Virus record (IMG/VR): IMGVR_UViG_3300028581_000028
Coordinates: 20,314 to 84,313 of that record
Reading direction: 5' to 3' (one strand)
DNA length: 64,000 nt
From: a virus
A program made the translations under genes and the position numbers. The notes under the pieces are model-generated. The model was given only the letters and a program-made list of their open reading frames with translations. It was not told the origin of the DNA and made no database searches. Shown here in pieces: positions 5,459-59,344 of this stretch; the first letter of the stretch is position 1; each line of letters opens with the position of its first letter.

Positions 5459-6052
5459 TTATTTTTTAGAGAGTGTATAAATTTCTTCACCCGTTTCGAG
5501 TAATTTATAATTGGTAGTTTCAACCCCATTCTCCTCGCCATCTTTATAGTGTTCAAATAGGGTATTATAGGTGTTTTTAGCCCTAACTTTAATCTCATCG
5601 GCAGACCATTTAACCTTGCCAGTCTTAAACATCTCATCGAGTTCTGCTTCGATTTTAATGCCTAATTCTTTATTGGCTTCGGAATTGTCCCCAGCATTGT
5701 TATCGTCCCCAGCATTATCATCAGCTCCAGTATCGTCACCCTGATTGCCCTCGTTATCGTTTAAATCCTCTTTAATTTCATCGGCATCGTGAGGAATCTT
5801 ATCATCGTTTTCGTCTTTTTCGTCCACGAAGTCAAGGATTTCGTTCACAACCCATTTGTCGTTTGCTTTTACTTTAGCAAGGGTGTCTTTACTGGCTTTT
5901 TTGCCTTTAGATTCTGCAGTCGTGATAATTGTTTCGATTTTTTTAATCGTAGCAATACCAATTCTGGCATCCTCTGGGAGATCCGATAACTTAAGCTCGT
6001 GTTCAGCCATCAGTTTCTCATACGCATACTTATAAACTTTCTCGTCACTCAT
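5459..6052 (-). CDS. Acidic hypothetical protein
   Basis: 197 aa ORF with D/N/G-rich linker. Confidence 0.65.
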   Translation of the reverse strand: MSDEKVYKYAYEKLMAEHELKLSDLPEDARIGIATIKKIETIITTAESKGKKASKDTLAKVKANDKWVVNEILDFVDEKDENDDKIPHDADEIKEDLNDNEGNQGDDTGADDNAGDDNNAGDNSEANKELGIKIEAELDEMFKTGKVKWSADEIKVRAKNTYNTLFEHYKDGEENGVETTNYKLLETGEEIYTLSKK

Positions 6053-6096
6053 AATTATTTGTTTTTAAAATATATAAATTGTGTTACCTTATTTTT

Positions 6097-6741
6097 TTAT
6101 GCTTTACCGCCCTTACGGTATCCGTAGTCACCCTCTTCGAACTGGGTGCGAACCATTTTAGGCTTTATGTTTTTCTTTTTTGTGTTTCCGCCACGTTTTT
6201 TCTTTTCCTTTAACGATTCTAAAACCTTTTCCAGTTTTTTAATGGCGAGTTTATACTCGTTAATAAGGGTTTGGATTTCCGATTCTGTTACTTCGCCTTT
6301 TTTAGCACGATTTTCTACGTTTGTAGTTACCTTTTCTGAGGTGCGTTCAACCGCCTCGTGATTTTTTGTTGCTGGACGTTTTTTAGGTTCGTTCTTACGA
6401 GCTTCTGCTCTGGCTTTAGCCTTTGCCTTTTGTGTTCTGGCTTTAGTTAAAAGCTCATCAATGTCGTACCCAGATTTTTTGGCTGATTCCTCACGTTTTT
6501 CAAGCTCGGCACAATCTGCCTCGCCCTCTTTACGTTTTGGGGCAGAAGCCTTTTCCTTTTTAGCTTTAGGCTCGGATTTGGCTTTAACTTTGGTTTCTTT
6601 TTTTTCGAGTTCGGCTAATGTTTTTTCCAGTTCATCGATCTCGCCTTTAGCAAAATCCTTTTCATCTTGGGGAACATTGGCATCTGCGATGAGTTCCTTG
6701 TACTCCGCAATTTCTTTTTTAATATCATCAATTTTTGCCAT
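6097..6741 (-). CDS. Lys/Glu-rich coiled-coil protein, possibly virion-internal
   Basis: Charged helical composition; ends with YRKGG motif. Confidence 0.55.
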   Translation of the reverse strand: MAKIDDIKKEIAEYKELIADANVPQDEKDFAKGEIDELEKTLAELEKKETKVKAKSEPKAKKEKASAPKRKEGEADCAELEKREESAKKSGYDIDELLTKARTQKAKAKARAEARKNEPKKRPATKNHEAVERTSEKVTTNVENRAKKGEVTESEIQTLINEYKLAIKKLEKVLESLKEKKKRGGNTKKKNIKPKMVRTQFEEGDYGYRKGGKA

Positions 6742-14374: not shown

Positions 14375-15679
14375 TTACGATTGAGCTTCTGCTTTAGTTT
14401 CTTTTTTCACTTTAACACCCTTGTAGTCGATTCCTCTAAGCCTTACAATATCGGCATTAAATTGCGACACGGATGTTTTTTCAGCCTCGCCCAATATAGT
14501 AGCTAAATTAACCATATTATCGCCCTCAAGCGATTTAAACTGGGCTGTATTTTTAAGGTTTGTAGCTCGATCTTTTGCTAAATCATCAACAAAAGACATA
14601 ATGCTATCTTTTAATGTTTTACCACCAACAAAGCCTTGTCTTGGATCGGGATCAGTTCCTACTGGAGCAAAAGCCAATGGGCTTCTTAGTTTACGAAGCA
14701 TTTGCATTTCGTAAACACGGTTAAAGTTTAACATTGATCGGATAGTGATTGCCTCAACGCTATCTTCCGTTTTCTGTAAAAAGTCTCTCAACCCTTGACT
14801 GATGTTATAAACTGCCTTGTATGTAAGCGAGTATTCGAGTACTCTATCTTCCTTAATTTCGTAAAAGCTTCCAACAAAACGGTCAACCAGCGAGTAGTCT
14901 TGTCTGTTATTTCCAGAGAAGTTACCGCTTGTTGTTTTCATATTGGTATTCCCAGCACCTATAACCATAAAGTCTGGATGTTTTGGGATCGCCTCACCTC
15001 TTCCAGAGGTTAAAATAGCACCCTCATCTGCCGACATTGATAAGGCATCGTTTAAAAGACCAGCAGTATTTGGATCAAGTTTTGGCAATTCATCGATAAT
15101 AAATACTGCACCGTATTTCCACGCCAACTCCATCTGCCCCTCTGTATAACCTCGTATGCTAAAACCACCAACGATTTGCATCGGAGATGTCCATTGGCTA
15201 CAGTTCAAAATATAGTACGGAGGAATTGGCTGGTTTGGATTTGGCGATTTGGAATCGGTTTTTTTATTGGCTTGATATGATCTATTACAATCCTTTGGAT
15301 CGCCCAGTAAATATTTTGCGACATTTTTTGCCATTACTGTTTTACCAGTTCCAGCCTTGCCCCAGAGGTAAACATTATTTTTAAGTAGCAAGTCATCGCA
15401 TATTTGCTTAAACACTCCTTGATTAGTGTTTATTTTACTATCGCAACTGCCTTGTTCCCCTTGTTTCATTGGGTTTTTTGGGATATTGGAACTTTGCGTT
15501 GTCCCAGTTGCAGAAGTCTCTCCTTTTGCCATAATTAAAGTTTTAAGATTTGTATCTAAATTTTCATATTTTACTTCTTTGTTGGCTAATTCTTTTTGAA
15601 TAGCCTTGCTGATTAATTCTTGTTGAGTGATGTGTTCACTTTTCAACTCATCCAACAATTCTTTTACTGCGTCTGCCAT
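14375..15679 (-). CDS. MoxR/CbbQ/CobS-like AAA+ ATPase
   Basis: Walker A GKAGTGKT, Walker B FIIDE, LLNDAL, HPDFMVIGAGNT, DYSLVDRF. Confidence 0.9.
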   Translation of the reverse strand: MADAVKELLDELKSEHITQQELISKAIQKELANKEVKYENLDTNLKTLIMAKGETSATGTTQSSNIPKNPMKQGEQGSCDSKINTNQGVFKQICDDLLLKNNVYLWGKAGTGKTVMAKNVAKYLLGDPKDCNRSYQANKKTDSKSPNPNQPIPPYYILNCSQWTSPMQIVGGFSIRGYTEGQMELAWKYGAVFIIDELPKLDPNTAGLLNDALSMSADEGAILTSGRGEAIPKHPDFMVIGAGNTNMKTTSGNFSGNNRQDYSLVDRFVGSFYEIKEDRVLEYSLTYKAVYNISQGLRDFLQKTEDSVEAITIRSMLNFNRVYEMQMLRKLRSPLAFAPVGTDPDPRQGFVGGKTLKDSIMSFVDDLAKDRATNLKNTAQFKSLEGDNMVNLATILGEAEKTSVSQFNADIVRLRGIDYKGVKVKKETKAEAQS

Positions 15680-20295: not shown

Positions 20296-22164
20296 TTATA
20301 ATGTGTTATCTTCGACTATGTTAAATAATTGTTCAAGTATCTCCTCCAGCGTACTACAGTAAGTTAAATTTACCGCATCGGATACAGATACTTTTGATGT
20401 TTTTGGATCATTTACTTTTGATGCGTCTTGAGTTATTTTATCCCTAAACGCAGTAACCCTTTTTTCAATTCTTGCAGACCAAGTTTGGTATGCTGAATGA
20501 TTAACAATAAAATCTTTTATCTTTTCCGTGCTGGTGCTTGTTATTGTTTCGCCAAGATACGTTTCTGTTAAGTTATTAAACTCATCATAAAACTCTTGCT
20601 CAAAATCAACATCCTCCACGTTGCGTCCACTTTTTATAATATTAGCACGGATTTCGTTTTTGAAGTTTTCTATTGCCCTCTCAATCCTTTTCTCGAAAAT
20701 GTTTTCGAGTTTTGGGAAGCTAAGTGCAAAATCATCCCCAGCAACGATAATTCCGTTTAACTCTTCAGCGTTAAAACCGCCAAGTATATAATCACCGCCA
20801 CTTTTGAATATATCGGGGTTAAAAAAGATTTCAGTCTTATTCATATCTTCGACTTTTTCAATATTTACATAATGTTTATTATCAATGAGGTCAAGACGTT
20901 TTTCGTTATCGTGATTACATACTTTGCAAGTATGTGTATCCTCGTTTGCCTTAAGCCATTTATGACCGCATTTAGCACAAGTAACTCTGCCACCAAGCTC
21001 CATTTTTTGCTCCGCCCTACGTTGTTCGCTAATGGCTATTGCAAGGGCTTGTTTGCGATCAGTTACCAGTTGTCCGCTTGAGCTTCTTAATCTGCCTTCC
21101 TTAAACTCGTGCATAACGGTAGCTATTTTGCCACCATCTTTAAAACCTTCAACTTCTGCCAGTTTTGTGTAATAATGTTCATCCTTTTCCAGATGTTCAA
21201 CCGCAACGTGTTTAGGTGCTTCCTTTGGGGTTATTTCGTGGCTATATAGTTTACGGAATGTTTTATCGTGTTCGTGTTCCTCGTTGATGCCCATTGCCAG
21301 TTCTTTCTTTGGGTAAGATTTAACGGGTACTTTGCCACCTTTTTTTAGTGTATTTAAAGGATCGTGGATATACTCATCCATTTCCCATAAATCCCAGTTA
21401 TCGCCATTTTTAATTGCAAAATAATGTCCAAGTCCATCATCGTACTCAAGTTGGAGTACAATATCTTGATATTTACCAGCACTATCACCCAACCCTACAA
21501 TTTTATATTTCTCGCCATCAATTTTTATAAGACCACCCTTTTTCATCTCCGTGATATTATTATCGCCAATGTGTTTATCGATAACATCTTTCATATATCC
21601 GAAGCCATTTTCAACTTTGTTAAGCCATTTAAGATCGGCAATAATGCGTTCAATTTTATCGTCCTCTTTATGCCTCAACCCAAATGTTTGCCATTTTACA
21701 TAGAACCAGTTTTCTTTAGGTAGCCAGTACCCTCTTTTAATAACCCTTTCAAGATTTTCAAAAGCCTCGTTATTATAAGCGTTACTGCCCAATGCCCATA
21801 CATCTGGGTGTTGATCTTTAATTTTTTTTGCGTAGTTGTAAATTAACTTTGATGGGACATTATTGGGATTAAACTGTATTGTACGACCACCTTTTTTGTA
21901 CTCATCGGCATCCGCCATAACTTCGTCTGGGGGCAGTATAGGAACTCCGTTACCAGCCGATTGATTTATTTTAGATAATTCTTTCCAATGTTTTTTACTG
22001 GCTTCTCTATTTATAATAACCTCACCGCCCTCCAGTTCTACTATTTGCTTGGTATCGGTTACGATTGCTTTTATTCCACCGAGATGCTTACCATCTTTAT
22101 CGTAATGGCGTTTGCCTTTCAGAGTGCCACCTTTTTTTCCGTTGCTTGTTTGTTTGACCGCCAT
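20296..22164 (-). CDS. Multidomain probable virion-internal protein (DUF5661- and DUF6496-like modules)
   Basis: ELEGGEVIIN motif; ELAMGINEEHEH..YYTKL; KIATVMHEFKEGRLRSSSGQLVTDRKQALAIAISE; CxxC finger; repeated xK(K/D/S)GG linkers. Confidence 0.6.
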   Translation of the reverse strand: MAVKQTSNGKKGGTLKGKRHYDKDGKHLGGIKAIVTDTKQIVELEGGEVIINREASKKHWKELSKINQSAGNGVPILPPDEVMADADEYKKGGRTIQFNPNNVPSKLIYNYAKKIKDQHPDVWALGSNAYNNEAFENLERVIKRGYWLPKENWFYVKWQTFGLRHKEDDKIERIIADLKWLNKVENGFGYMKDVIDKHIGDNNITEMKKGGLIKIDGEKYKIVGLGDSAGKYQDIVLQLEYDDGLGHYFAIKNGDNWDLWEMDEYIHDPLNTLKKGGKVPVKSYPKKELAMGINEEHEHDKTFRKLYSHEITPKEAPKHVAVEHLEKDEHYYTKLAEVEGFKDGGKIATVMHEFKEGRLRSSSGQLVTDRKQALAIAISEQRRAEQKMELGGRVTCAKCGHKWLKANEDTHTCKVCNHDNEKRLDLIDNKHYVNIEKVEDMNKTEIFFNPDIFKSGGDYILGGFNAEELNGIIVAGDDFALSFPKLENIFEKRIERAIENFKNEIRANIIKSGRNVEDVDFEQEFYDEFNNLTETYLGETITSTSTEKIKDFIVNHSAYQTWSARIEKRVTAFRDKITQDASKVNDPKTSKVSVSDAVNLTYCSTLEEILEQLFNIVEDNTL

Positions 22165-38763: not shown

Positions 38764-40032
38764 TTAAAACAATTTTCCTTGACTCAAAAATGTTTCGAGT
38801 CTTTTTTCTGCGATTTTACAATATTCTGCACTCATCTCGCTTCCGATGAATTTTCTATTTGACCGCAGTGCAACCTCTCCCGTGCTTCCAGTCCCCATAA
38901 ATGGATCGTAAACAACACCGCCCTCGAATTCTGCTACACAACCGCAATCCGATAACTCAGTAATATACTCAGTTTCTCCCTTCTCGCTTGGCTTGTATTT
39001 TATGGTCGTCATCTGGGCATCGAAAGTATCATCAAATCCCAGTATCTCTTTAATAACAATCCAGTCCTCTGCAGTCGGGTAGCTCTCGCCACTAAACCAA
39101 TGATGTGTGGCTTGGGATTGCATAGTAAACTCGATCTGCTCAACTGTTTGGCTACCCTTCCATTTTTTAAGGTACGCAACGATATCTTTTATTGCTGGAA
39201 GATCTCTTGCCTCGACCAGCCCAGACCTTTCTTGCACGGAATAAGGCTTCGATCTATCCCAAACTACGGTACCACGATCAGCATTATCAAATAAGACTGG
39301 TTTTGATATTTTAAATCTCGGTTGTTTGCACTTAGAACATACAAATTCGGGACAACTGGATAACATTGGTTTGACCAGCAACGAGTCGTTATAACTGGCA
39401 TAATGTTTATTCGGGCTGGGCTTTGTTGGGATATCCCAAAAGTCTGCTACATCACCGCAGTTTTTACCCTTTTCGCTTTGCCCTAACCAGTCAACATCTC
39501 CGCTAAAATTATTTACGTTGCCCTTGCCATTGTATTTTATCCTATTAGCTCCACGATTATCAGCGTTTTTATGTCTATCCCTCACGGCATCTAAATCGAA
39601 AAAGTAATTTTCGCTTTTAACCATAAAGAAAAAGTACTCGTGTTTTTTCGAAAAGCGATCCGTTACGCTTTCTGGCATCGCATTGCGTTTTGCCCATACT
39701 ACATCATTGCGAACTATCCAGCCACGATCCATACACCCGATTGCAAATCGATGAGGCAATAACAATAATCTTTTATCGCCATCGTAGGAATCCCCCATAT
39801 TGATCCATACACTCCCAGTTGGCTTTAGTTTATCATAAAGCACATACATCATTTGCCAAAGATTTTCCAGATAAACGATAAAGCTATGTTCTTGTCCCCA
39901 TTGACCAGCGTACCCATAATCTCGTAGTTTCCAGTACGGAGGCGAGGTGATAACACAATCTAAAAAGTTATCGGGCATCCTACGAAGAGTTGCCAGACAA
40001 GGCTCATTATATATTTTGTTTAACTCCATCAC
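38764..40032 (-). CDS. N4/N6 DNA methyltransferase (beta class) with internal insertion
   Basis: TSPPY, WAKRNAMPESVTDR, HYASY, YDPFMGTGST; insert between CSKC and CGC. Confidence 0.9.
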   Translation of the reverse strand: MMELNKIYNEPCLATLRRMPDNFLDCVITSPPYWKLRDYGYAGQWGQEHSFIVYLENLWQMMYVLYDKLKPTGSVWINMGDSYDGDKRLLLLPHRFAIGCMDRGWIVRNDVVWAKRNAMPESVTDRFSKKHEYFFFMVKSENYFFDLDAVRDRHKNADNRGANRIKYNGKGNVNNFSGDVDWLGQSEKGKNCGDVADFWDIPTKPSPNKHYASYNDSLLVKPMLSSCPEFVCSKCKQPRFKISKPVLFDNADRGTVVWDRSKPYSVQERSGLVEARDLPAIKDIVAYLKKWKGSQTVEQIEFTMQSQATHHWFSGESYPTAEDWIVIKEILGFDDTFDAQMTTIKYKPSEKGETEYITELSDCGCVAEFEGGVVYDPFMGTGSTGEVALRSNRKFIGSEMSAEYCKIAEKRLETFLSQGKLF

Positions 40033-45294: not shown

Positions 45295-46185
45295 TTATTT
45301 CTTGGGTTTATTTAATGCTAATTTAATTGCATCGGCATAAGATACTCCGTTGTTTGTTAATGACATTATCTGATCGTGTCGTTTTGGCTCTCTTGCCTTT
45401 AGGCGATCAAATCTTGTTTTATCAAACTGGCATCCAAATCCACAATACGCACATCCCGTATTGGTTTCGCCCTTATCGTAAATATCCGAGTATTTAAGGT
45501 TGTTTTGTTTTACAAACGCCCAGACATCCTCTTTCGTCCAAATCGATAAAGGCATACATTTATTATCCTTGAGGTTTATACACCCAGTCTTTAAGTAACC
45601 GCCTTTGCGTGTGCCACTATCCGTTGCCATTGTTCCAATAAAAAATCCATCCTTAAGGTATTTTTGCATTGGTTTCTTTTTAAGCAAGTGACAGCATTTA
45701 TACGTTAAATCAAACGGGGCATCAATAAGATGTTTATACTTTTCTGGGAGCTTAAATGATCTGGTTTTACTACCATCTCTTTTGATACCAGTTAAAAATA
45801 GCCGAACTGTATCTTGGTTTTTGCTGGTTGGATATTTACAGTCGTGTATCATTCTTGCGACCTTTTTGCTGATTAAAGGAAAGCCAAACTCTTTTACTAT
45901 TTTAATAAAAGTTGTTTCTGGTCTTACGATCTCTACATTATCAACCTCCCTTACAAATTTTAGTATTTCGATAAACTCGTTGGTAGTATTTGAAAAGACT
46001 GCAGTTCTGTTTTTATCCAGCAATCGAACCAACTTTAACATTACGGTACTATCTATGCCCCCAGAAAACCCGATTTTGCTATTTGGGTACTGAGCAATAA
46101 AAGAGTCGATAACGTAAAGCGAATGATCTATCTTTTGAGATAAGCTCCACTTAAGTCTTTGTTGTAATTCCTCGCTGGATACCAT
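45295..46185 (-). CDS. PAPS-reductase-family protein
   Basis: FSGGIDSTV, FSNTTNEF, CCHLLKKKP, PLSIWT, NTGCAYCGFG. Confidence 0.85.
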   Translation of the reverse strand: MVSSEELQQRLKWSLSQKIDHSLYVIDSFIAQYPNSKIGFSGGIDSTVMLKLVRLLDKNRTAVFSNTTNEFIEILKFVREVDNVEIVRPETTFIKIVKEFGFPLISKKVARMIHDCKYPTSKNQDTVRLFLTGIKRDGSKTRSFKLPEKYKHLIDAPFDLTYKCCHLLKKKPMQKYLKDGFFIGTMATDSGTRKGGYLKTGCINLKDNKCMPLSIWTKEDVWAFVKQNNLKYSDIYDKGETNTGCAYCGFGCQFDKTRFDRLKAREPKRHDQIMSLTNNGVSYADAIKLALNKPKK

Positions 46186-53269: not shown

Positions 53270-53936
53270 AATTAATTTATTTTATTTTTTCGTTAATCCT
53301 CTTCTCCAGAATTAGTCCAAGTTCTGTAAGTTTATAATACTTTTTACTTTGGTATGGTCTTGTTTTTATTAGCCCTTTTTTAACAAGCGATCTTGTGGTG
53401 TTTGGGTGATATAAGTTGCTATCTTTAAGCAACGTCTTGTTTTTTATAATATACTTAAGACACTCAAGTTGTTTATTGGTAAGTTTTTTAATAATCTTAT
53501 TTCTAATAATAATGTCATATACCTCTAAACCAATACAAACTATACCCATCGCAACCGAAGCGTTAATTAAATGCTTGTTAATGTTTATTATTTTCGTTTT
53601 GGGTTTTTTAATCTTTTTCTTTTTGTGCGTTTTAATCTTTACCATAACTAAGGTTTTTTTATTGTTTTAGCAATTTCTTTAATATCGATCCCCAGTAAGC
53701 TCAACGCTTTTTTAAGTCTATCAGCACAAGGCTCTGCGACTTCATCGCTTTGATGTTCTATGATCCGTAAATGGCTATCAAAGAACTTTGGCAAGTCTAT
53801 TATTAACGACCATTCTTCTAAACGCAATTGCTGGGGCAATTCTGTTTTGCTCAACACCTCTCTTATCGCATTTAATAAAGCGACTTTATCGGTTGTTGCT
53901 CTTATTTTTATTATTGGTTTCTTCTGCACCATTATT

Positions 53937-54239
53937 TTATTTTAATAAATTAAAACAATCATCTAATTCAATTTGAGTACACCATTGCAATCCCGATACA
54001 TCAATATTAATAGGTATTCTTTCTTTTGCAAGTTCTTTGGCGACTTCTATTCCCAACCATCTTCTACCCCTATTATAAATAATATACCACCCTTTACATC
54101 CATTATCTTCTTTTATTGGTAAATATTGCGGACAAACACCTCCTATATCAAACAGATATCCTTTTCTAAAGGCTAAAGTATGACCGTTAAACTTAAAGTG
54201 ATTTGAATAATTGATAATATAATTGTCCGAATTTTGCAT
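53937..54239 (-). CDS. Hypothetical protein immediately left of the cassette array
   Basis: 100 aa ORF; no tyrosine-recombinase motifs seen. Confidence 0.6.
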   Translation of the reverse strand: MQNSDNYIINYSNHFKFNGHTLAFRKGYLFDIGGVCPQYLPIKEDNGCKGWYIIYNRGRRWLGIEVAKELAKERIPINIDVSGLQWCTQIELDDCFNLLK

Positions 54240-54254
54240 CTGATTATTATTTAC

Positions 54255-54288
54255 TTACAAAGGTTATTAGCTATATAAGATGTTATCG
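54255..54288 (+). other. Putative attI-like cassette insertion site
   Basis: Lone GTTATCG core (G at 54282) with no preceding hairpin; its flank pairs with the R'' end of cassette 1. Confidence 0.5.
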
Positions 54289-54293
54289 GCAAC

Positions 54294-54980
54294 CTAAAAA
54301 GACAGCGTACCTTGTTTGATACTTTCTGAAATTCGTTTGATTGCCTTGTCAATATATTCTTTGTCGATTTCAACAGCGGTTAAGTGTAAATTCATTTTAT
54401 CTAAACGGTTGGCTTTATCAACTGCCAAAGCTATTGAACCGCTCCCGAAATGGGTGTCTAAAATCTTTGCGTTTAGTTCAGCATATTTTGTAATTACCCA
54501 ATCATATAAATCAATTGGTTTTTGCGTTGGGTGTATTTTACCATTTTCGCTCCTGCTTAATAGTTTCTTTATTCGAGTAGGTTTTTTAAATGAAGTCCAA
54601 GCCATTTCACCATCTGCAAAACTCATCCCCTCACCTATCATTTTATCCCATATTAAAAAACATTTTGCACTTCCTAAGTATTCTAAAAAATAGTTTCCAC
54701 CCCAAATAATCTGATTTTTTGAAACGCGCTTCAGTTGTTCAAAATATTCATTGTTTGGCGTTGCATTATCCCAACCCTTTGTTTTAAATTGTTTAAAATA
54801 TGTTCCGCTTGTTTCAATATCAATTCCATAAGGAGGGTCAACAATAGCCAAATCAAAGTATTTATCAGGGTATTGCTTCATAATTTCCATACAGTCAGCG
54901 TGGAAAAGAGAAAGAAAAGGCAGCCGATAACACTCGCTATACGCAAGCTGGGGTGTAGTGGTATTTTGAAGGTCTGTCAT
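54294..54980 (-). CDS. Cassette 1: N6/N4 DNA methyltransferase (beta class)
   Basis: VDPPY, HPTQKP, LDTHFGSGS; ATG lies in the attC1 loop. Confidence 0.9.
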   Translation of the reverse strand: MTDLQNTTTPQLAYSECYRLPFLSLFHADCMEIMKQYPDKYFDLAIVDPPYGIDIETSGTYFKQFKTKGWDNATPNNEYFEQLKRVSKNQIIWGGNYFLEYLGSAKCFLIWDKMIGEGMSFADGEMAWTSFKKPTRIKKLLSRSENGKIHPTQKPIDLYDWVITKYAELNAKILDTHFGSGSIALAVDKANRLDKMNLHLTAVEIDKEYIDKAIKRISESIKQGTLSF

Positions 54981-55053
54981 TTTAATTTAGTTTTGTGTAA
55001 TTTGATACTTTTGCGCTTCTAAACCCCGCCAGCGCATAGCGGAAACGTTATAA
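54925..55053 (+). repeat. attC-like site 1
   Basis: CGATAAC..CGCTATACGCAAGCTGGGGT / ACCCCGCCAGCGCATAGCG..GTTATAA. Confidence 0.85.
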
Positions 55054-55131
55054 GCAAGCTGGCAGACGTGCTTCGATTTAACATTTCGGTTGAAAAAATT
55101 AAAATAAAAAAGCCCACGCACATCAGTTTTT

Positions 55132-55827
55132 TCAAAACTGTAAGGTTTGTTGTATTGCATCATAATTAGTTTTGTTGTTTGACCATATTGCTTCCGTTGT
55201 TTTAAACATAGCACCTTGCATATCTACCATTGGTTTAAATGGCAACCAATCAGCTTTAGTGTTTTCACATACTATTGCTTGTCCATTTCTATCTTTGCAC
55301 CATTCAGCAAGTTTTTTAAAGTCAATTTGTTTATTACTGCACTTGTATTCGTGTCCACCAAATTGATATGGTGGGTCTATAAACCAAGTTGCTTCTTCGT
55401 TTTCTAAATCTTCATAACTTGCTTCCCTTATTTCCCAATGTTTAATTTTATGCAGTTGTGTAGCAACATTATTTAATTGTGTTACTATTCCATCAACAGC
55501 ATAACTACTTACCGTTTTTCTTAATCCTGTTGTTCCTTGTTGCACTATAAATCCTAAAAATATTTTTTCATCAGCACTTAAATCAAAGTTATCAAGTGTT
55601 TCCCCAAGTTTTAAAATTGGCAATTTCCTAATATCGTTTTCACTACATTGTTGTAGCCATTTCCAAGTCCTTACTATTATGTGGTATTTATCTACAAGCA
55701 AAACATCGTTCTGCCAATATTTCAAGCTATACCTTGCACTTCCAGCAAAGGGTTCAATTATCCTTTTGTGTTTCGGTGGTGGATAGTAGTCCACTATTTT
55801 TGATTTGCTTCCGTAATAACTAAACAT
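55132..55827 (-). CDS. Cassette 2: Dam/D12-like (alpha class) adenine methyltransferase
   Basis: FSYYGSK, IEPFAGSA, FIDPPY. Confidence 0.85.
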   Translation of the reverse strand: MFSYYGSKSKIVDYYPPPKHKRIIEPFAGSARYSLKYWQNDVLLVDKYHIIVRTWKWLQQCSENDIRKLPILKLGETLDNFDLSADEKIFLGFIVQQGTTGLRKTVSSYAVDGIVTQLNNVATQLHKIKHWEIREASYEDLENEEATWFIDPPYQFGGHEYKCSNKQIDFKKLAEWCKDRNGQAIVCENTKADWLPFKPMVDMQGAMFKTTEAIWSNNKTNYDAIQQTLQF

Positions 55828-55905
55828 ATTTTCCCACGCTTTTTTTTATTTTAATTTTTTCTTTAGTGCTTCGATTTGGCATTTGTGCTAAACAATCCAG
55901 CCAGC

Positions 55906-56003
55906 TTATAACAGCGGTTTTGTGCTATTTGCCCCATTAAGTTTGTCGTTAAATTGAAACATTGTGCAAGGGCAAACAGACACAAAGCCGCAAACCGTTA
56001 TGC
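55906..56003 (+). repeat. attC-like site 2
   Basis: TTATAAC.GCGGTTTTGTGCTATTTGCCC / GGGCAAACAGACACAAAGCCGC..GTTATGC. Confidence 0.85.
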
Positions 56004-56009
56004 ACAAGT

Positions 56010-56240
56010 TTAAGAACCTGCGACATCACATCCTTTTCCGATTGAAAGTGATTTTTTAAATATCTCAACTTTTTGAGTATAATCATTAACAAATCCAATA
56101 GACGTTACTCTAAATGATTTTTTATTGTTTTTAAAAACGTAACGCATTTGGATAAGTTTGTAATATCCACTACTTTCAAACATTCCTACATCAAACCATT
56201 GTGATTTTTCAGGAAATAAATAATTAATTAGCTTTTTCAT
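56010..56240 (-). CDS. Cassette 3: small hypothetical protein (MKKLINYLFPEK...)
   Basis: ATG at 56238-56240 with A-rich leader; the frame also stays open into attC3. Confidence 0.6.
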   Translation of the reverse strand: MKKLINYLFPEKSQWFDVGMFESSGYYKLIQMRYVFKNNKKSFRVTSIGFVNDYTQKVEIFKKSLSIGKGCDVAGS

Positions 56241-56275
56241 TTTATATTGTTTTAAAATTAATAATAAAAACCTGT

Positions 56276-56373
56276 GCATAACCGCACCTATAAGCAATAC
56301 AGCCAATGAGCTTTAGTTGTAACTTTATAGCGTGGTGCATGGCTGTACTGCTCATAGCTGCAACACGTTAGCA
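56276..56373 (+). repeat. attC-like site 3
   Basis: GCATAAC..CTATAAGCAATACAGCCA / TGGCTGTACTGCTCATAG..GTTAGCA. Confidence 0.85.
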
Positions 56374-56415
56374 ACAAGCGTAAGAAAGTCCTACGCTCAT
56401 TACCAACTTGGAAAA

Positions 56416-56616
56416 TTAATCTTTACTAATTTCCCATTCCTTTTTAACAAATCCAGAGAATGAACCAAATTTCTTTTTAAACTTGGATAAACACTCCTTT
56501 TTTGTTTGTCCGTAATAACTATATCTTGCCCCATTATGGAACTCGACAGTTAAATTGAACTCTTCACCGTCTTTTGGTCTTTTGCCTTTTGTACGGTCGA
56601 TGACTTTTATTGCCAT
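56416..56616 (-). CDS. Cassette 4: small hypothetical protein
   Basis: 66 aa ORF filling the cassette body. Confidence 0.65.
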   Translation of the reverse strand: MAIKVIDRTKGKRPKDGEEFNLTVEFHNGARYSYYGQTKKECLSKFKKKFGSFSGFVKKEWEISKD

Positions 56617-56641
56617 GATAAAAAATGTATTAAACGCCAGT

Positions 56642-56772
56642 TGCTAACACTGTATAAATTCAAGTTGGGCGTTGTTCAAACTTGAAACAGTTGTGCTACT
56701 TATATCATTTTGGTAGGTTGACAGGGCATCACACTTAATCCCAACCTGAAATTTATACAGATACCGTTATGT
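56642..56772 (+). repeat. attC-like site 4
   Basis: TGCTAAC.CTGTATAAATTCAAGTTGGG / CCCAACCTGAAATTTATACAG..GTTATGT. Confidence 0.85.
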
Positions 56773-56778
56773 GTAATG

Positions 56779-57435
56779 TTAAGAAGCATCCGTGCAACTT
56801 TGAAGCACTTCAAAACATAATTGTTCAGGGATTCTACTTCTTTCGTAATGTCCGTTTTTACCTTGCGTTCCTGTTTTTGCTCCACGTCTTGCACTTTCAT
56901 GGTGGCAATGCTTATTCATTACATTACCTTGCTTATCGTATTTGTAATTGTGGCATTCGGATCTTGGTATCCATGTTTTTGAGTTAGTCCAAATATCTGT
57001 TGGCTTTGCTCGATCATCTCCATATTGGCAGTACCAAACTGTATGCCTTTTAAATTCTTGCATCCATTCCATGTGTCTTAACATTCCACGTGGGTTTTCA
57101 ATAAAAAACACCATGTTTGGGTTTATAGCCAACCAGTCTTTTATTAGCTTAATAAAGTGTTGGTTTACGACATCACATTTTTTAGCATAATCGCTTTTAG
57201 GTTCTGTTTTATTCCTATGTGTGCTTATCGCTGCAATAGTGTATGTGGTGCAATCAGGCGAAGCCCAAACAACATCAGGAATAAAAGGCACATCTTCTTT
57301 TTTAAGTTCGCCAATATCAATCGAAAGGTTAATGTTTTCGTATTGTTCCCAATCAACTGAAAAAACATTCATTCCTAATTTATCAGCAACTTTACCAATA
57401 CTTCTCGATCCTGCAAATAATTCTAATATATTCAT
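56779..57435 (-). CDS. Cassette 5: compact C5-cytosine-methyltransferase-like protein
   Basis: LELFAGS (motif I), WASPDC (motif IV), FIENP (motif VI), YCQYG..KPTDIW. Confidence 0.8.
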   Translation of the reverse strand: MNILELFAGSRSIGKVADKLGMNVFSVDWEQYENINLSIDIGELKKEDVPFIPDVVWASPDCTTYTIAAISTHRNKTEPKSDYAKKCDVVNQHFIKLIKDWLAINPNMVFFIENPRGMLRHMEWMQEFKRHTVWYCQYGDDRAKPTDIWTNSKTWIPRSECHNYKYDKQGNVMNKHCHHESARRGAKTGTQGKNGHYERSRIPEQLCFEVLQSCTDAS

Positions 57436-57463
57436 AATTAATAATTTACTAATAAAACACTAC

Positions 57464-57556
57464 ACATAACAAAGGCTATAAGCAATTGCCTATCAGCGTT
57501 TGTGGTTAATTGAACAGTATTTACAAGGCAACTGCTCATAGCCTCGAACGTTAGGT
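57464..57556 (+). repeat. attC-like site 5
   Basis: ACATAAC..AGGCTATAAGCAATTGCCT / AGGCAACTGCTCATAGCCT..GTTAGGT. Confidence 0.85.
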
Positions 57557-57574
57557 GTAATGCCAGCGGACACC

Positions 57575-58255
57575 CTAAAACATTCGGAGTTGGCTGACAA
57601 AATCTTTAAAACGCTTTTCTTGTGCTTCATAATAATCTTTGTTAAGTTCAAAACCTGTAAAGTTGAAATTTCCTTTAGCACAAGCAATTCGGCTACTTCC
57701 TGAACCTAAATGAGTGTCTAAAATCAAATTGCCTTGCTCTGCATAATTTTGTAAAATCCAATCGTAAATATTTATATGCTTTTGGCAAGGATGTATTTTT
57801 CCTTTAAATGTATAGTCAACTTTCAATTTGCCATCAAATCCATTCATATTACCAATATCTGAAAATCGTATCATTTTACATTTGCCATCAAAAGAAGTCC
57901 ACGCCAATTCAAATTCATCAAATTCTCGTTTCCCTAAATATCCTGCTTTTATAACTGATTTGTCCCAGCATATCCATTGCCGTTTTATTGGCAAATTAAA
58001 GTAGTTTCCGCCCCACACTATTTGATTTTTAGAAACTCTAAATAACTGCTCCCAATATTCGTCTGTTGGTCTTTCTTTGTCCCATTCAGCTATTCCAATT
58101 CCGTAAGGTGGGTCAACTATTGCAAGGTCAAAATGATTATCAGAAAAGCGTTTTAAACCCTCTACACAATCCTCATTATACACCACAGAAGGCACTGCAC
58201 CTAACACGGTATTGGCAAAATTGCCGTTCTGTTTTTCAATTAAACTTTCGTCCAT
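57575..58255 (-). CDS. Cassette 6: N6/N4 DNA methyltransferase (beta class)
   Basis: VDPPY, HPCQK, LDTHLGSGS; ATG lies in the attC6 loop. Confidence 0.9.
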   Translation of the reverse strand: MDESLIEKQNGNFANTVLGAVPSVVYNEDCVEGLKRFSDNHFDLAIVDPPYGIGIAEWDKERPTDEYWEQLFRVSKNQIVWGGNYFNLPIKRQWICWDKSVIKAGYLGKREFDEFELAWTSFDGKCKMIRFSDIGNMNGFDGKLKVDYTFKGKIHPCQKHINIYDWILQNYAEQGNLILDTHLGSGSSRIACAKGNFNFTGFELNKDYYEAQEKRFKDFVSQLRMF

Positions 58256-58322
58256 AATTTCAACTTTTGTTTTTCAATTTATCTTTCGGTTCGGCAACTT
58301 CGCCAATACCCATACGTACGTT
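58199..58322 (+). repeat. attC-like site 6 (terminal, degenerate R')
   Basis: ACCTAAC..GGTATTGGCAAAATTGCCG / CGGCAACTTCGCCAATACC-CATAC-GTACGTT. Confidence 0.8.
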
Positions 58323-58402
58323 CTTCTGTATCCATGCTGTTTATTTTTTTGGTTTAAAGGGGCGAGGCATAAGCCCCAACCCCTCCTTCTGAACAAAGCA
58401 TC

Positions 58403-59344
58403 TTAATTAACTATTTCGATTTCTTGTTTTGTATTTTTGCCAATCCAGTCCATTATGGTATTATATGCAATGAGGTTTATGTGATAACCTCTGCCAGTCA
58501 TAATAAACTCTGTTTTTTGTTTTGTATTGGTTGAGTGATTTGTATATCTGGTAACTCCGTTAAATAACCCCCATAATGTTGCTCCCTCTAACTCCATCTC
58601 GGTCTTCATAGCCAGATTTACCTTTTCGGCTACCTTTAGCTTATTTCCGTTAATATCGCCTTTTTTAGCATCAAGGTTAATGTCGAAACATTCCTTAAGA
58701 ATACTGGCAAAGATCTCGTCACGTAATGGAGTATCTGACATTATCTTGAAATTTTTCATAAGTTTTTCATCCATTACAATAGTACGTCTTAACTCTTGCA
58801 TCGCCAATTTAATGCGTTCTACCGCAGACTCGGAGTGTCTAAATTTGGGTATATCTCTGTATGCCTTATAAAATGTATTTTCACATACAACGACTGTATT
58901 TGAACTACCAAATCCAATCGAGGTTGATCCGTTATGGCTATTAAGAGCAGTAATGTGTCGCCTTACTGAACTCTTGCCAATAAACTCGGTCTTTAACTCG
59001 CATTGTAAATACACTTTTTTACCCTCGTGTAGCATCCCTCCACGACTAACATCAAGTCCGATGCCCTCACTTGCCAGTACCAGCGTTTCGGCTAATTGGC
59101 TATTTTGGTAAGGGATGTATTTATCGGTAACTGATCCAAGCCATTGTTTTGTATCCTTTCTAAAAATACCAGTACTGCCAGATTTTAGTCCATTAATGTC
59201 TGGATCGTCTGATAATGTAACTAAAGGAATTTGAATTACAGACCAGTTTAAGCCAGTAGATTCAAGTACATCGAGAATTTTCTCGTTTTGTTCGTAGGTA
59301 GTAACTACCTTTTGTTCGTTTTGGTTTACAGTTGCTTCGTTCAT
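58403..59344 (-). CDS. DUF932 family protein
   Basis: GLNWSV, GSVTDKYIPYQN, NSHNGS, VVCENT, TLWGLFNGVTRYTNH. Confidence 0.85.
   Translation of the reverse strand: MNEATVNQNEQKVVTTYEQNEKILDVLESTGLNWSVIQIPLVTLSDDPDINGLKSGSTGIFRKDTKQWLGSVTDKYIPYQNSQLAETLVLASEGIGLDVSRGGMLHEGKKVYLQCELKTEFIGKSSVRRHITALNSHNGSTSIGFGSSNTVVVCENTFYKAYRDIPKFRHSESAVERIKLAMQELRRTIVMDEKLMKNFKIMSDTPLRDEIFASILKECFDINLDAKKGDINGNKLKVAEKVNLAMKTEMELEGATLWGLFNGVTRYTNHSTNTKQKTEFIMTGRGYHINLIAYNTIMDWIGKNTKQEIEIVN

Follow-up and report, generated by a model that had tools for sequence, protein, structure and literature searches.

We identified an array of six putative gene cassettes in a phage genome fragment, a 64,000-nucleotide stretch of DNA (positions 20,314 to 84,313 of the IMG/VR virus record IMGVR_UViG_3300028581_000028; hereafter, the window). 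The array spans window positions 54282-58326 and encodes six minus-strand genes, one between neighbouring sites, with an imperfect hairpin after each gene on the plus strand. We explain this region best as six mobile cassettes with one gene each, arrayed within an integron-like system of Bacteroidota and their phages. This is a real integron-like cassette system and not a classical integron, and phage-borne cassette arrays have been reported before. The features of the array are given below, with scores from R1, a covariance model of the sites.

54282-54297, plus strand: proximal array boundary; TATATAAGAT followed by G|TTATCGGCAACCT, which is the 5' flank of cassette 1.
54294-54980, minus strand: g1, cassette 1; N6/N4 DNA methyltransferase of 228 aa (PF01555, E 1.8e-12), with its ATG in the loop of site 1.
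54920-55058, plus strand: site 1; R1 72.8 bits, E 1.1e-12; TAAC end at 54931, closing G at 55047.
55132-55827, minus strand: g2, cassette 2; D12-class (Dam-like) adenine methyltransferase of 231 aa (PF02086, phrog_56).
55901-56008, plus strand: site 2; R1 match.
56010-56240, minus strand: g3, cassette 3; 76 aa, no family match.
56271-56378, plus strand: site 3; R1 41.3 bits, E 2.9e-6.
56416-56616, minus strand: g4, cassette 4; 66 aa, no family match.
56637-56777, plus strand: site 4; R1 56 bits; the single window site in the training set.
56779-57435, minus strand: g5, cassette 5; DNA methyltransferase of 218 aa (phrog_757, E 5e-26; no Pfam match).
57459-57561, plus strand: site 5; R1 54.4 bits; bottom-strand fold z -3.8.
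57575-58255, minus strand: g6, cassette 6; N6/N4 DNA methyltransferase of 226 aa (PF01555, E 6.7e-13), with its ATG in the loop of site 6.
58194-58326, plus strand: site 6, the distal array end; R1 60.4 bits; degenerate closing core ACG|TACGTTC.

R1 was built from an alignment of 48 sites from cultured phages, IMG/VR contigs, contigs of metagenome-assembled genomes (MAGs) and one chromosome, with one site from the window. A scan of the 64 kb with R1 returned exactly six sites, all on the plus strand (41-73 bits, E 1e-12 to 3e-6); beyond these nothing in the 64 kb reaches E 0.1, the next-best candidate having an E value of 0.65. An initial annotation of the window had described six hairpins here and suggested a covariance model of those six sites. 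The 48-site model, trained mostly on other genomes, recovers all six at the same places. Its further statements, that each site opens with TAAC (six of six) and closes with GTTA (five of six, site 6 ending ...ACG|TACGTTC), that one gene lies between neighbours, and that four of the six cargo genes are methyltransferases, agree with the sequence, the list of open reading frames (ORFs) and the family matches (PF01555 for g1 and g6, PF02086 for g2, phrog_757 for g5). No relevant Rfam family was found in a scan of 53500-59000. An early crude hairpin scan, which found three of the six sites, was superseded by the covariance model and by a scan for paired flanks.

The flank scan took GTTA with the 12 nt after it and asked whether the reverse complement occurs, with at most three mismatches, before a TAAC no more than 2.5 kb away. 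In the 84-kb record it recovered five of the six pairs that bracket genes, and mononucleotide shuffles gave 0-5 scattered pairs; the sixth pair (54282/54931) is visible in the sequence itself. Around each gene lie ~15 bp that pair solely with their own partner. In all six pairs, the left flank has A at position 11 and the reverse complement of the right flank has G, which produces a G-T wobble on the bottom strand only. When a site was joined in silico to its own cassette start, as in a circularised cassette, the bottom strand folded at -25 to -29 kcal/mol, versus -15.5 to -19.8 kcal/mol for joins to a non-cognate cassette start, so that cognate flanks add 9-10 kcal/mol of stability. Thus, the flank after each GTT does pair with the flank before the next TAAC, as initially noted. 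At each of the six sites, the bottom strand folds more stably than the top. Linear folds of lone sites beat shuffles only modestly (z 0.4 to -3.8), the minus strand doing better than the plus.

The strong evidence for the sites is their covariation, not their folding energy. All 48 sites of the R1 alignment have the same AAC/GTT cores, although TAAC and GTTA were selection criteria for them. The two inner helices covary, with 87.8% of cells paired versus 62.5% in shuffled alignments and 29-43% when the partners are slid; double-change cells number 207 versus 62 in shuffles, and none of 500 shuffles reaches the observed value. The site family is defined by TAAC-N, a covarying stem, a loop, a stem, ~5 nt, GTT(A), cognate flanks and the A/G pair at position 11. 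Its imperfect hairpin is 55-190 nt long, with an asymmetric central bulge (1 nt versus ~5 nt) and fixed non-Watson-Crick positions. All six window sites belong to the family by score, and all six flank pairs by the flank rule.

These features raise the question of whether the region is a classical CALIN (cluster of attC sites lacking an integron-integrase), in which ordinary attC sites are moved by the canonical IntI of a host integron, as proposed for the phage CALINs of Qi et al. 2023. An attC site is recognised by just such AAC/GTT cores, an imperfect hairpin and cognate R''/R' pairing. The CALIN criterion is at least two attC sites within a few kb and no IntI, and here there are six R1 sites in 4 kb and no recombinase. 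Moreover, one of two sites flanking a methyltransferase in the Polaribacter phage P12002L was recombined by IntI1 in E. coli (PMC9892861), and gp35 of P12002L has a similar flank pair. However, R1 detects no P12002L site, and the geometry of the R1 sites differs from the classical description in the ~15-bp flank pairing, the 1-versus-5-nt bulge and the fixed non-Watson-Crick positions. Qi et al. screened 10,705 phage genomes, and neither their main text nor one supplement mentions the cultured Flavobacterium phages described below. The recombinase evidence that bears on this explanation is described further below.

The cassettes behave as exchangeable modules when genomes are compared. No close backbone relative of the window phage was obtained (a DUF932 protein beside the array has no relatives in IMG/VR), and variation was therefore examined on cassette homologues and in unrelated phages. 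Site 2 and its two flanks have a counterpart of 96% identity in 37 records of cultured Baltic Flavobacterium phages (Muminvirus and Lillamyvirus; two are RefSeq duplicates). The gene between the flanks of that counterpart is unrelated to the window's, and identity ends at GTTAT. In the cultured Flavobacterium phages, ~6-13 similarly built cassettes lie at 1.6-9 kb; they are rich in methyltransferases and vary in order. Pairwise BLAST blocks between these phages stop at +3/+4 of the next GTTA. Many also start at the G of GTTA (e.g., L003 3317-4104 and L006 1648-2435, 100% identical), and some extend up to ~25 nt into the preceding hairpin. Cassette 2 homologues in IMG/VR contigs match from 55047 exactly (L052) or within 1-17 nt of it (L032, L031, L028), and a cassette 5 homologue matches from 56766 (L009), all in unrelated surroundings. 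Cassette 2 and its 95% homologue in L052 have different hairpins.

Among homologous cassette pairs from all loci, 34 have the same right hairpin and a different left one, and a single pair shows the reverse; both hairpins are the same in 20 pairs and different in 26. This 34-to-1 linkage indicates that the unit consists of G|TTA-flank, gene, flank-TAAC, hairpin and G, with integron polarity on the plus strand. A transposon-like reading, in which a flank-bounded gene moves without a hairpin, is ruled out by the same linkage.

Independent lake-metagenome samples were examined as Logan contigs. A high-depth contig (runs X4 and X5) has a site-2-like hairpin fused without a gap to the G of cassette 6 at 57550. 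Other contigs (run X7) part from the window sequence exactly ahead of 54282, where a hairpin arm (...CACAAAC) takes its place. The site 6 hairpin in X4 and X5 continues after 58317 as TACAGGCAATAC, and the end reads G|TTACAGGCAATAC, the start of a further cassette. A joint from 56364 to 57548 would delete cassettes 4 and 5 at ACGTTAG; with one low-depth contig and a 23-nt side, it is only a hint of such a deletion. Separately, the stretch corresponding to 57550-58223 in X4 and X5 is related to cassette 6, with 26 differences over 674 nt, and has ~10x the contig depth of the rest of the region, which suggests that a more abundant phage carries it. Most joints of ~54500-54900 to 57990-58190 were set aside as cross-mapping between g1 and g6, which are paralogous methylases. 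Chimeric assembly was rejected, as an independent 45,960-nt contig runs from the backbone into cassette 1 and another exits site 6 into the backbone.

Thus, in cultured phages, IMG/VR and lake contigs, homology breaks at the GTTA core, at a resolution coarser than the exact phosphodiester bond. Comparison across these genomes establishes the linkage of hairpin and cassette body, the modularity of the cassettes and the GTTA breakpoints.

The modularity could have another origin if the hairpins are regulatory stem-loops (terminators, leaders, or elements for mRNA processing or stability) and the genes are shuffled through short conserved sequences by homologous recombination, either general or phage-encoded, in a way like that of the PeSL cassettes discussed below. 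The arms are partly conserved between cassettes and could offer homology for this, but the breakpoints fall at the 4-9-nt GTTA core and not in the longer conserved arms, and the arms covary instead of staying identical. Some hairpin swaps do misfit a single crossover point; symmetric homologous exchange, however, would not give the 34-to-1 linkage. The hairpins sit between the genes of one long operon, as regulatory elements might, yet such elements leave no role for cognate flank pairing across a whole gene.

Gene orientation also bears on this alternative. All six window genes are on the minus strand, and the five cassettes scored by the scan are all antisense to the polarity of the sites. 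The same is true of 53 of 56 cassettes in cultured phages and 43 of 50 in IMG/VR contigs, whereas chromosomal cassettes are mainly sense (14 versus 5). Because the phage genes are antisense, the hairpin lies upstream (5') of its own gene. The g1 and g6 ORFs start at an ATG in the loop of the right-hand hairpin (54931-54980 and 58206-58255), which supplies the start codon and the first ~17 codons, one arm encoding codons ~8-17. Start codons in the loops of sites 1 and 6 would suit a regulatory leader, as would the finding that the better-folding strand in phages is the mRNA-sense strand. However, the chromosomal arrays transcribe the opposite strand of the sites and are tied to a site-specific recombinase. 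The opposite transcription in chromosomes and phages argues for a role of the conserved structure in DNA, not RNA, and the GTT core, read in three frames across three genes, also points to conservation at the DNA level. We consider the regulatory explanation unlikely.

One MAG contig of Flavobacterium sp. (L056) has a phage-type hairpin within a mostly sense array (6008-6363), with a 93-aa antisense ORF that starts in the loop. This mixed array hints at exchange between phage and host cassette pools.

The initial annotation had proposed a search for an IntI-type tyrosine recombinase in the rest of the genome and in candidate hosts. None was identified in the window record, in ten other phage records or, using TIGR02249, above cut-off in 121 Flavobacteriaceae genomes. 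PF00589 has no match in the 84-kb record and five complete cultured phages, and no homologue of the chromosomal recombinase described next was identified in the window record or in five further IMG/VR records (three at least 90% complete).

One common arm sequence was used as a pattern to scan 185,579 species genomes and gave 10 matches, of which eight are true arrays on Bacteroidota-type MAG contigs. A search of those MAGs for integron-integrases returned two-part matches below threshold, one of which (L073:5308-6351) directly adjoins five uniform ~120-nt sites of the same architecture. This recombinase passes the cut-off of NF040815, the XerA / 'integron integrase' equivalog (221.5 bits, cut-off 220), and fails that of TIGR02249 (206.7 bits, cut-off 265). 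It aligns end to end with XerA structures and has 18 residues where Vibrio IntI4 has 60, a stretch that is established as the IntI-specific insertion (Messier and Roy 2001; MacDonald et al. 2006). The array-linked recombinase looks catalytically intact, the HxxR, H and Y motifs of tyrosine recombinases being visible in the alignment. Array-linked recombinases (L073 residues 1-74; L071:3268-4335) also share a conserved N-terminal extension of ~75 aa that XerA is without; this could be an extra DNA-binding domain.

Homologues of the recombinase are present in 173 of 301 sampled Flavobacteriaceae genomes. R1 arrays lie directly downstream on the same strand at seven of the 11 recombinase-bearing chromosomal or MAG loci whose downstream flank could be examined, and at least 18 R1 sites accompany the recombinase in G178 and 15 in G256. 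One of the seven is a Bacteroidales MAG, with a recombinase 42% identical to that of Flavobacterium over its full length. In another MAG (L072), two sites are located ~8 kb upstream of the recombinase. At the level of gene neighbourhoods, these loci show that the sites are associated with a recombinase in chromosomes. A conserved ATATAAAC(A/T)A|GTT lies after the stop codon of the recombinase and ahead of the first cassette (L073:5207-5307, L104, L108, L110, L112), and a 16-bp inverted repeat precedes the ATATAAAC motif in two genomes. The window array starts after TATATAAGAT|GTTA (54272-54284), which resembles this motif and is only suggestive of an attI-like sequence at the proximal boundary.

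For the classical CALIN, the lack of any above-cut-off TIGR02249 match in the 121 Flavobacteriaceae genomes is a difficulty. The one complete integron that IntegronFinder 2.0 reported for Bacteroidetes is that of Salinibacter (PMC9024848), and the recombinase beside arrays of the same site family is 42 residues shorter than IntI4 in the stretch noted above. We regard movement of the window cassettes by a canonical IntI as quite improbable.

It might also be that an unrecognised phage enzyme, a nuclease or recombinase without a profile, moves the cassettes, and that the likeness to host arrays reflects only shared ancestry of the sites. Many virulent phages have arrays and no known recombinase, and most genes of the window phage are without a family match. 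However, no gene was seen to be conserved beside the arrays across the unrelated phages examined, and the window array and the Flavobacterium phage arrays have different neighbours. Polarity and cargo do distinguish the phage cassette pool from that of the host, but one covariance model scores phage and chromosomal sites alike, and one MAG array combines sense cassettes with a phage-type antisense cassette. We give this explanation little credence. An HUH/IS200-type single-strand mechanism was weighed as a further, purely hypothetical alternative.

We therefore return to a host-encoded enzyme and integron-like movement. It is probable, in our judgement, that a host Xer-like recombinase acts on folded bottom strands, with crossover at the AAC/GTT core and circular intermediates. 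On the plus strand, the unit is TTA plus ~12 nt of flank, an opposite-strand gene, a complementary flank ending in TAAC, a hairpin of 55-190 nt and G. The bottom strand of each site would fold, and in the excised circle the two flanks would pair and lengthen the stem to ~15 bp. A tyrosine recombinase would cross over in the conserved AAC/GTT core, two neighbouring sites would release one cassette circle, and the circle could enter at another site or at the proximal array boundary. The catalyst is most likely a host-encoded Xer-like recombinase ('integron-like' subgroup, rAID-1-type, see below) of the kind that runs arrays of the same family in Flavobacteriaceae chromosomes. The phage cargo consists chiefly of orphan DNA methyltransferases, swaps of which would alter which host restriction systems the phage escapes. 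We infer the enzyme that acts on the phage arrays, the single-stranded substrate, the circular intermediates and the anti-restriction role from these comparisons.

Several observations weigh against this reading. A recombinase was found in none of the 11 phage records searched, so we infer action of a host enzyme on phage DNA, and the recombinase is known from genomes of the host group. R1 has no matches at five loci with recombinase homologues (L105, L106, L107, L109 and L113); there, the flank scan gives no pair at L105, a single cassette at L106 and one distant pair, probably by chance, at each of L107, L109 and L113. Gene polarity differs between the phage and chromosomal cassette pools, and tblastn of the six window cassette proteins against the chromosomal arrays sampled gave no matches; exchange between the two pools may therefore be rare. 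About one third of homologous cassette pairs differ in both hairpins. In another pair, L005:6656-7549 and L006:5425-6318, the bodies are 99% identical and only the right hairpin is replaced (62% identity). Hairpins thus appear to be swapped sometimes without the gene, which one crossover point does not explain. Finally, the case for recombination comes from comparison and not from an event observed directly, the public runs being contigs, which cannot show circles, true depth or rare variants.

Overall, the integron-cassette signature recognised in the initial annotation stands for the architecture, the mobility, the G|TT-core boundaries and the hairpin polarity, but not for the enzyme class, and it is incomplete on gene polarity. 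Its proposal of integron-type recombination by the phage holds insofar as the cassettes are shuffled and rich in methyltransferases, but no phage-encoded or IntI enzyme was found in the records and genomes searched. Its remark that it knew of no characterised phage array like this is superseded, as phage-borne attC clusters with methyltransferases were published by Qi et al. 2023 (PMC9892861). We see an even chance that the fuller picture is correct: that Bacteroidota and their phages share an integron analogue that arose without IntI and in which a host Xer-like enzyme acts on folded sites with long cognate flanks, that virulent phages equipped with nothing but the arrays borrow this enzyme while infecting to trade anti-restriction methyltransferases, and that reversal of the cassettes makes the site a 5' leader and, for some genes, the source of the start codon. 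Such a system would be a second lineage of gene capture, one exploited by phages.

The source record is an 84.3-kb linear IMG/VR virus record with an estimated completeness of 61%, and lake-water metagenomes of many studies contain the window stretch. The phage is a large freshwater phage with putative Flavobacterium-type hosts. Outside the array we identified a DnaB-like helicase, one more methyltransferase and many ORFs without assignment, nearly all on the minus strand. The additional DNA methyltransferase is at 38764-40032 (phrog_67), a PAPS-reductase-like protein at 45295-46185 (phrog_424) and a porphyrin-biosynthesis-type match at 14375-15679 (phrog_249). The array neighbours are a 100-aa ORF and the DUF932 protein. 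Within the array, the motifs of g5 appear C5-like by eye. An 80-nt gap (55049-55131) separates the cassette 2 boundary from the g2 stop codon; a short ORF (54987-55214) that reads from here through site 1 is probably not a gene.

Integrons have been viewed as a bacterial device centred on IntI, and hardly any have been recorded in Bacteroidetes. The site family described here occurs both in long arrays beside a non-IntI recombinase in Flavobacteriaceae chromosomes and in shuffled arrays in many virulent phages. If the proposed mechanism is correct, cassette capture has a second enzymatic basis. Phages would then alter their anti-restriction repertoire gene by gene, and many mobile cassettes of a major phylum of aquatic and gut habitats would escape standard integron finders. 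Cultured Flavobacterium phages from the Baltic offer a direct experimental handle, as their plating efficiency already correlates with methyltransferase content in the isolation paper, the text of which does not mention the hairpins (PMC7077304).

As in classical integrons, single-gene cassettes are separated by imperfect hairpins that start ...AAC and end GTT...; what follows GTT is already part of the next cassette and pairs with that cassette's distal flank only once it is circular. On the top strand, the hairpin stays with the cassette 5' of it, and folding is better on the bottom strand than on the top. Also shared is the near-uniformity of sites in chromosomal arrays and their diversity in mobile contexts. 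Classical cassettes have sense genes with attC at the 3' end and are expressed from a platform promoter next to attI. In contrast, no integron platform is present at the window array, and the phage genes are antisense, with an upstream site that may hold the start codon. There is no IntI here, and the associated recombinase is without the IntI-specific insertion. Flank pairing extends over ~15 bp, not 7, with a fixed wobble at position 11, and the central bulge is asymmetric (1 nt versus ~5). In the chromosomes considered here, the recombinase gene and the cassettes point the same way.

The PeSL elements associated with Arbiol et al. 2010 are said to be mobile regulatory cassettes of T4-type phages, whose promoter-plus-stem-loop sequences reportedly recombine by homology. 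They too involve small accessory genes of a hyperplastic phage region, each with a stem-loop, that are shuffled between related phages. Unlike the conserved PeSL sequences, the stems here covary, only the AAC/GTT cores are fixed, and the breakpoints are at the core.

Qi et al. 2023 described 17 CALINs in phages, including that of Polaribacter phage P12002L with two methyltransferases (PMC9892861). P12002L is likewise a virulent phage of a Flavobacteriia host that has methyltransferases flanked by TAAC...GTTA hairpins and no integrase, and the authors made the same proposal, that phages tap cassette pools for anti-restriction. Unlike the window, P12002L has only two reported sites, with divergent predicted directions (PMC9892861), and its flank pair violates the position-11 rule; we do not claim these published sites for the R1 family. 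The text of that paper describes neither the long, shuffled arrays of the Flavobacterium phages nor a link to a host recombinase other than IntI.

The closest chromosomal precedent may be the recombinase-associated acquired interbacterial defence (rAID-1) clusters of Bacteroidales, the intergenic repeats of which Ross et al. 2019 called reminiscent of integrons (10.1101/471110). Such a cluster is defined by a XerD-like recombinase at its 5' end with 44% or more identity to BF9343_RS08045, at least two co-directional low-GC genes downstream, and repetitive intergenic sequences. The window is without a recombinase and is thus not an rAID-1 cluster. As described in the text of that source, rAID-1 clusters occur in gut Bacteroidales chromosomes with immunity-gene cargo; phage arrays, a folded-site model, the crossover point and cassette polarity are not part of that text. 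The rAID-1 layout is shared by the Flavobacteriaceae arrays and the Bacteroidales MAG, with R1-positive sites (L073, L104, L110, L111, L071).

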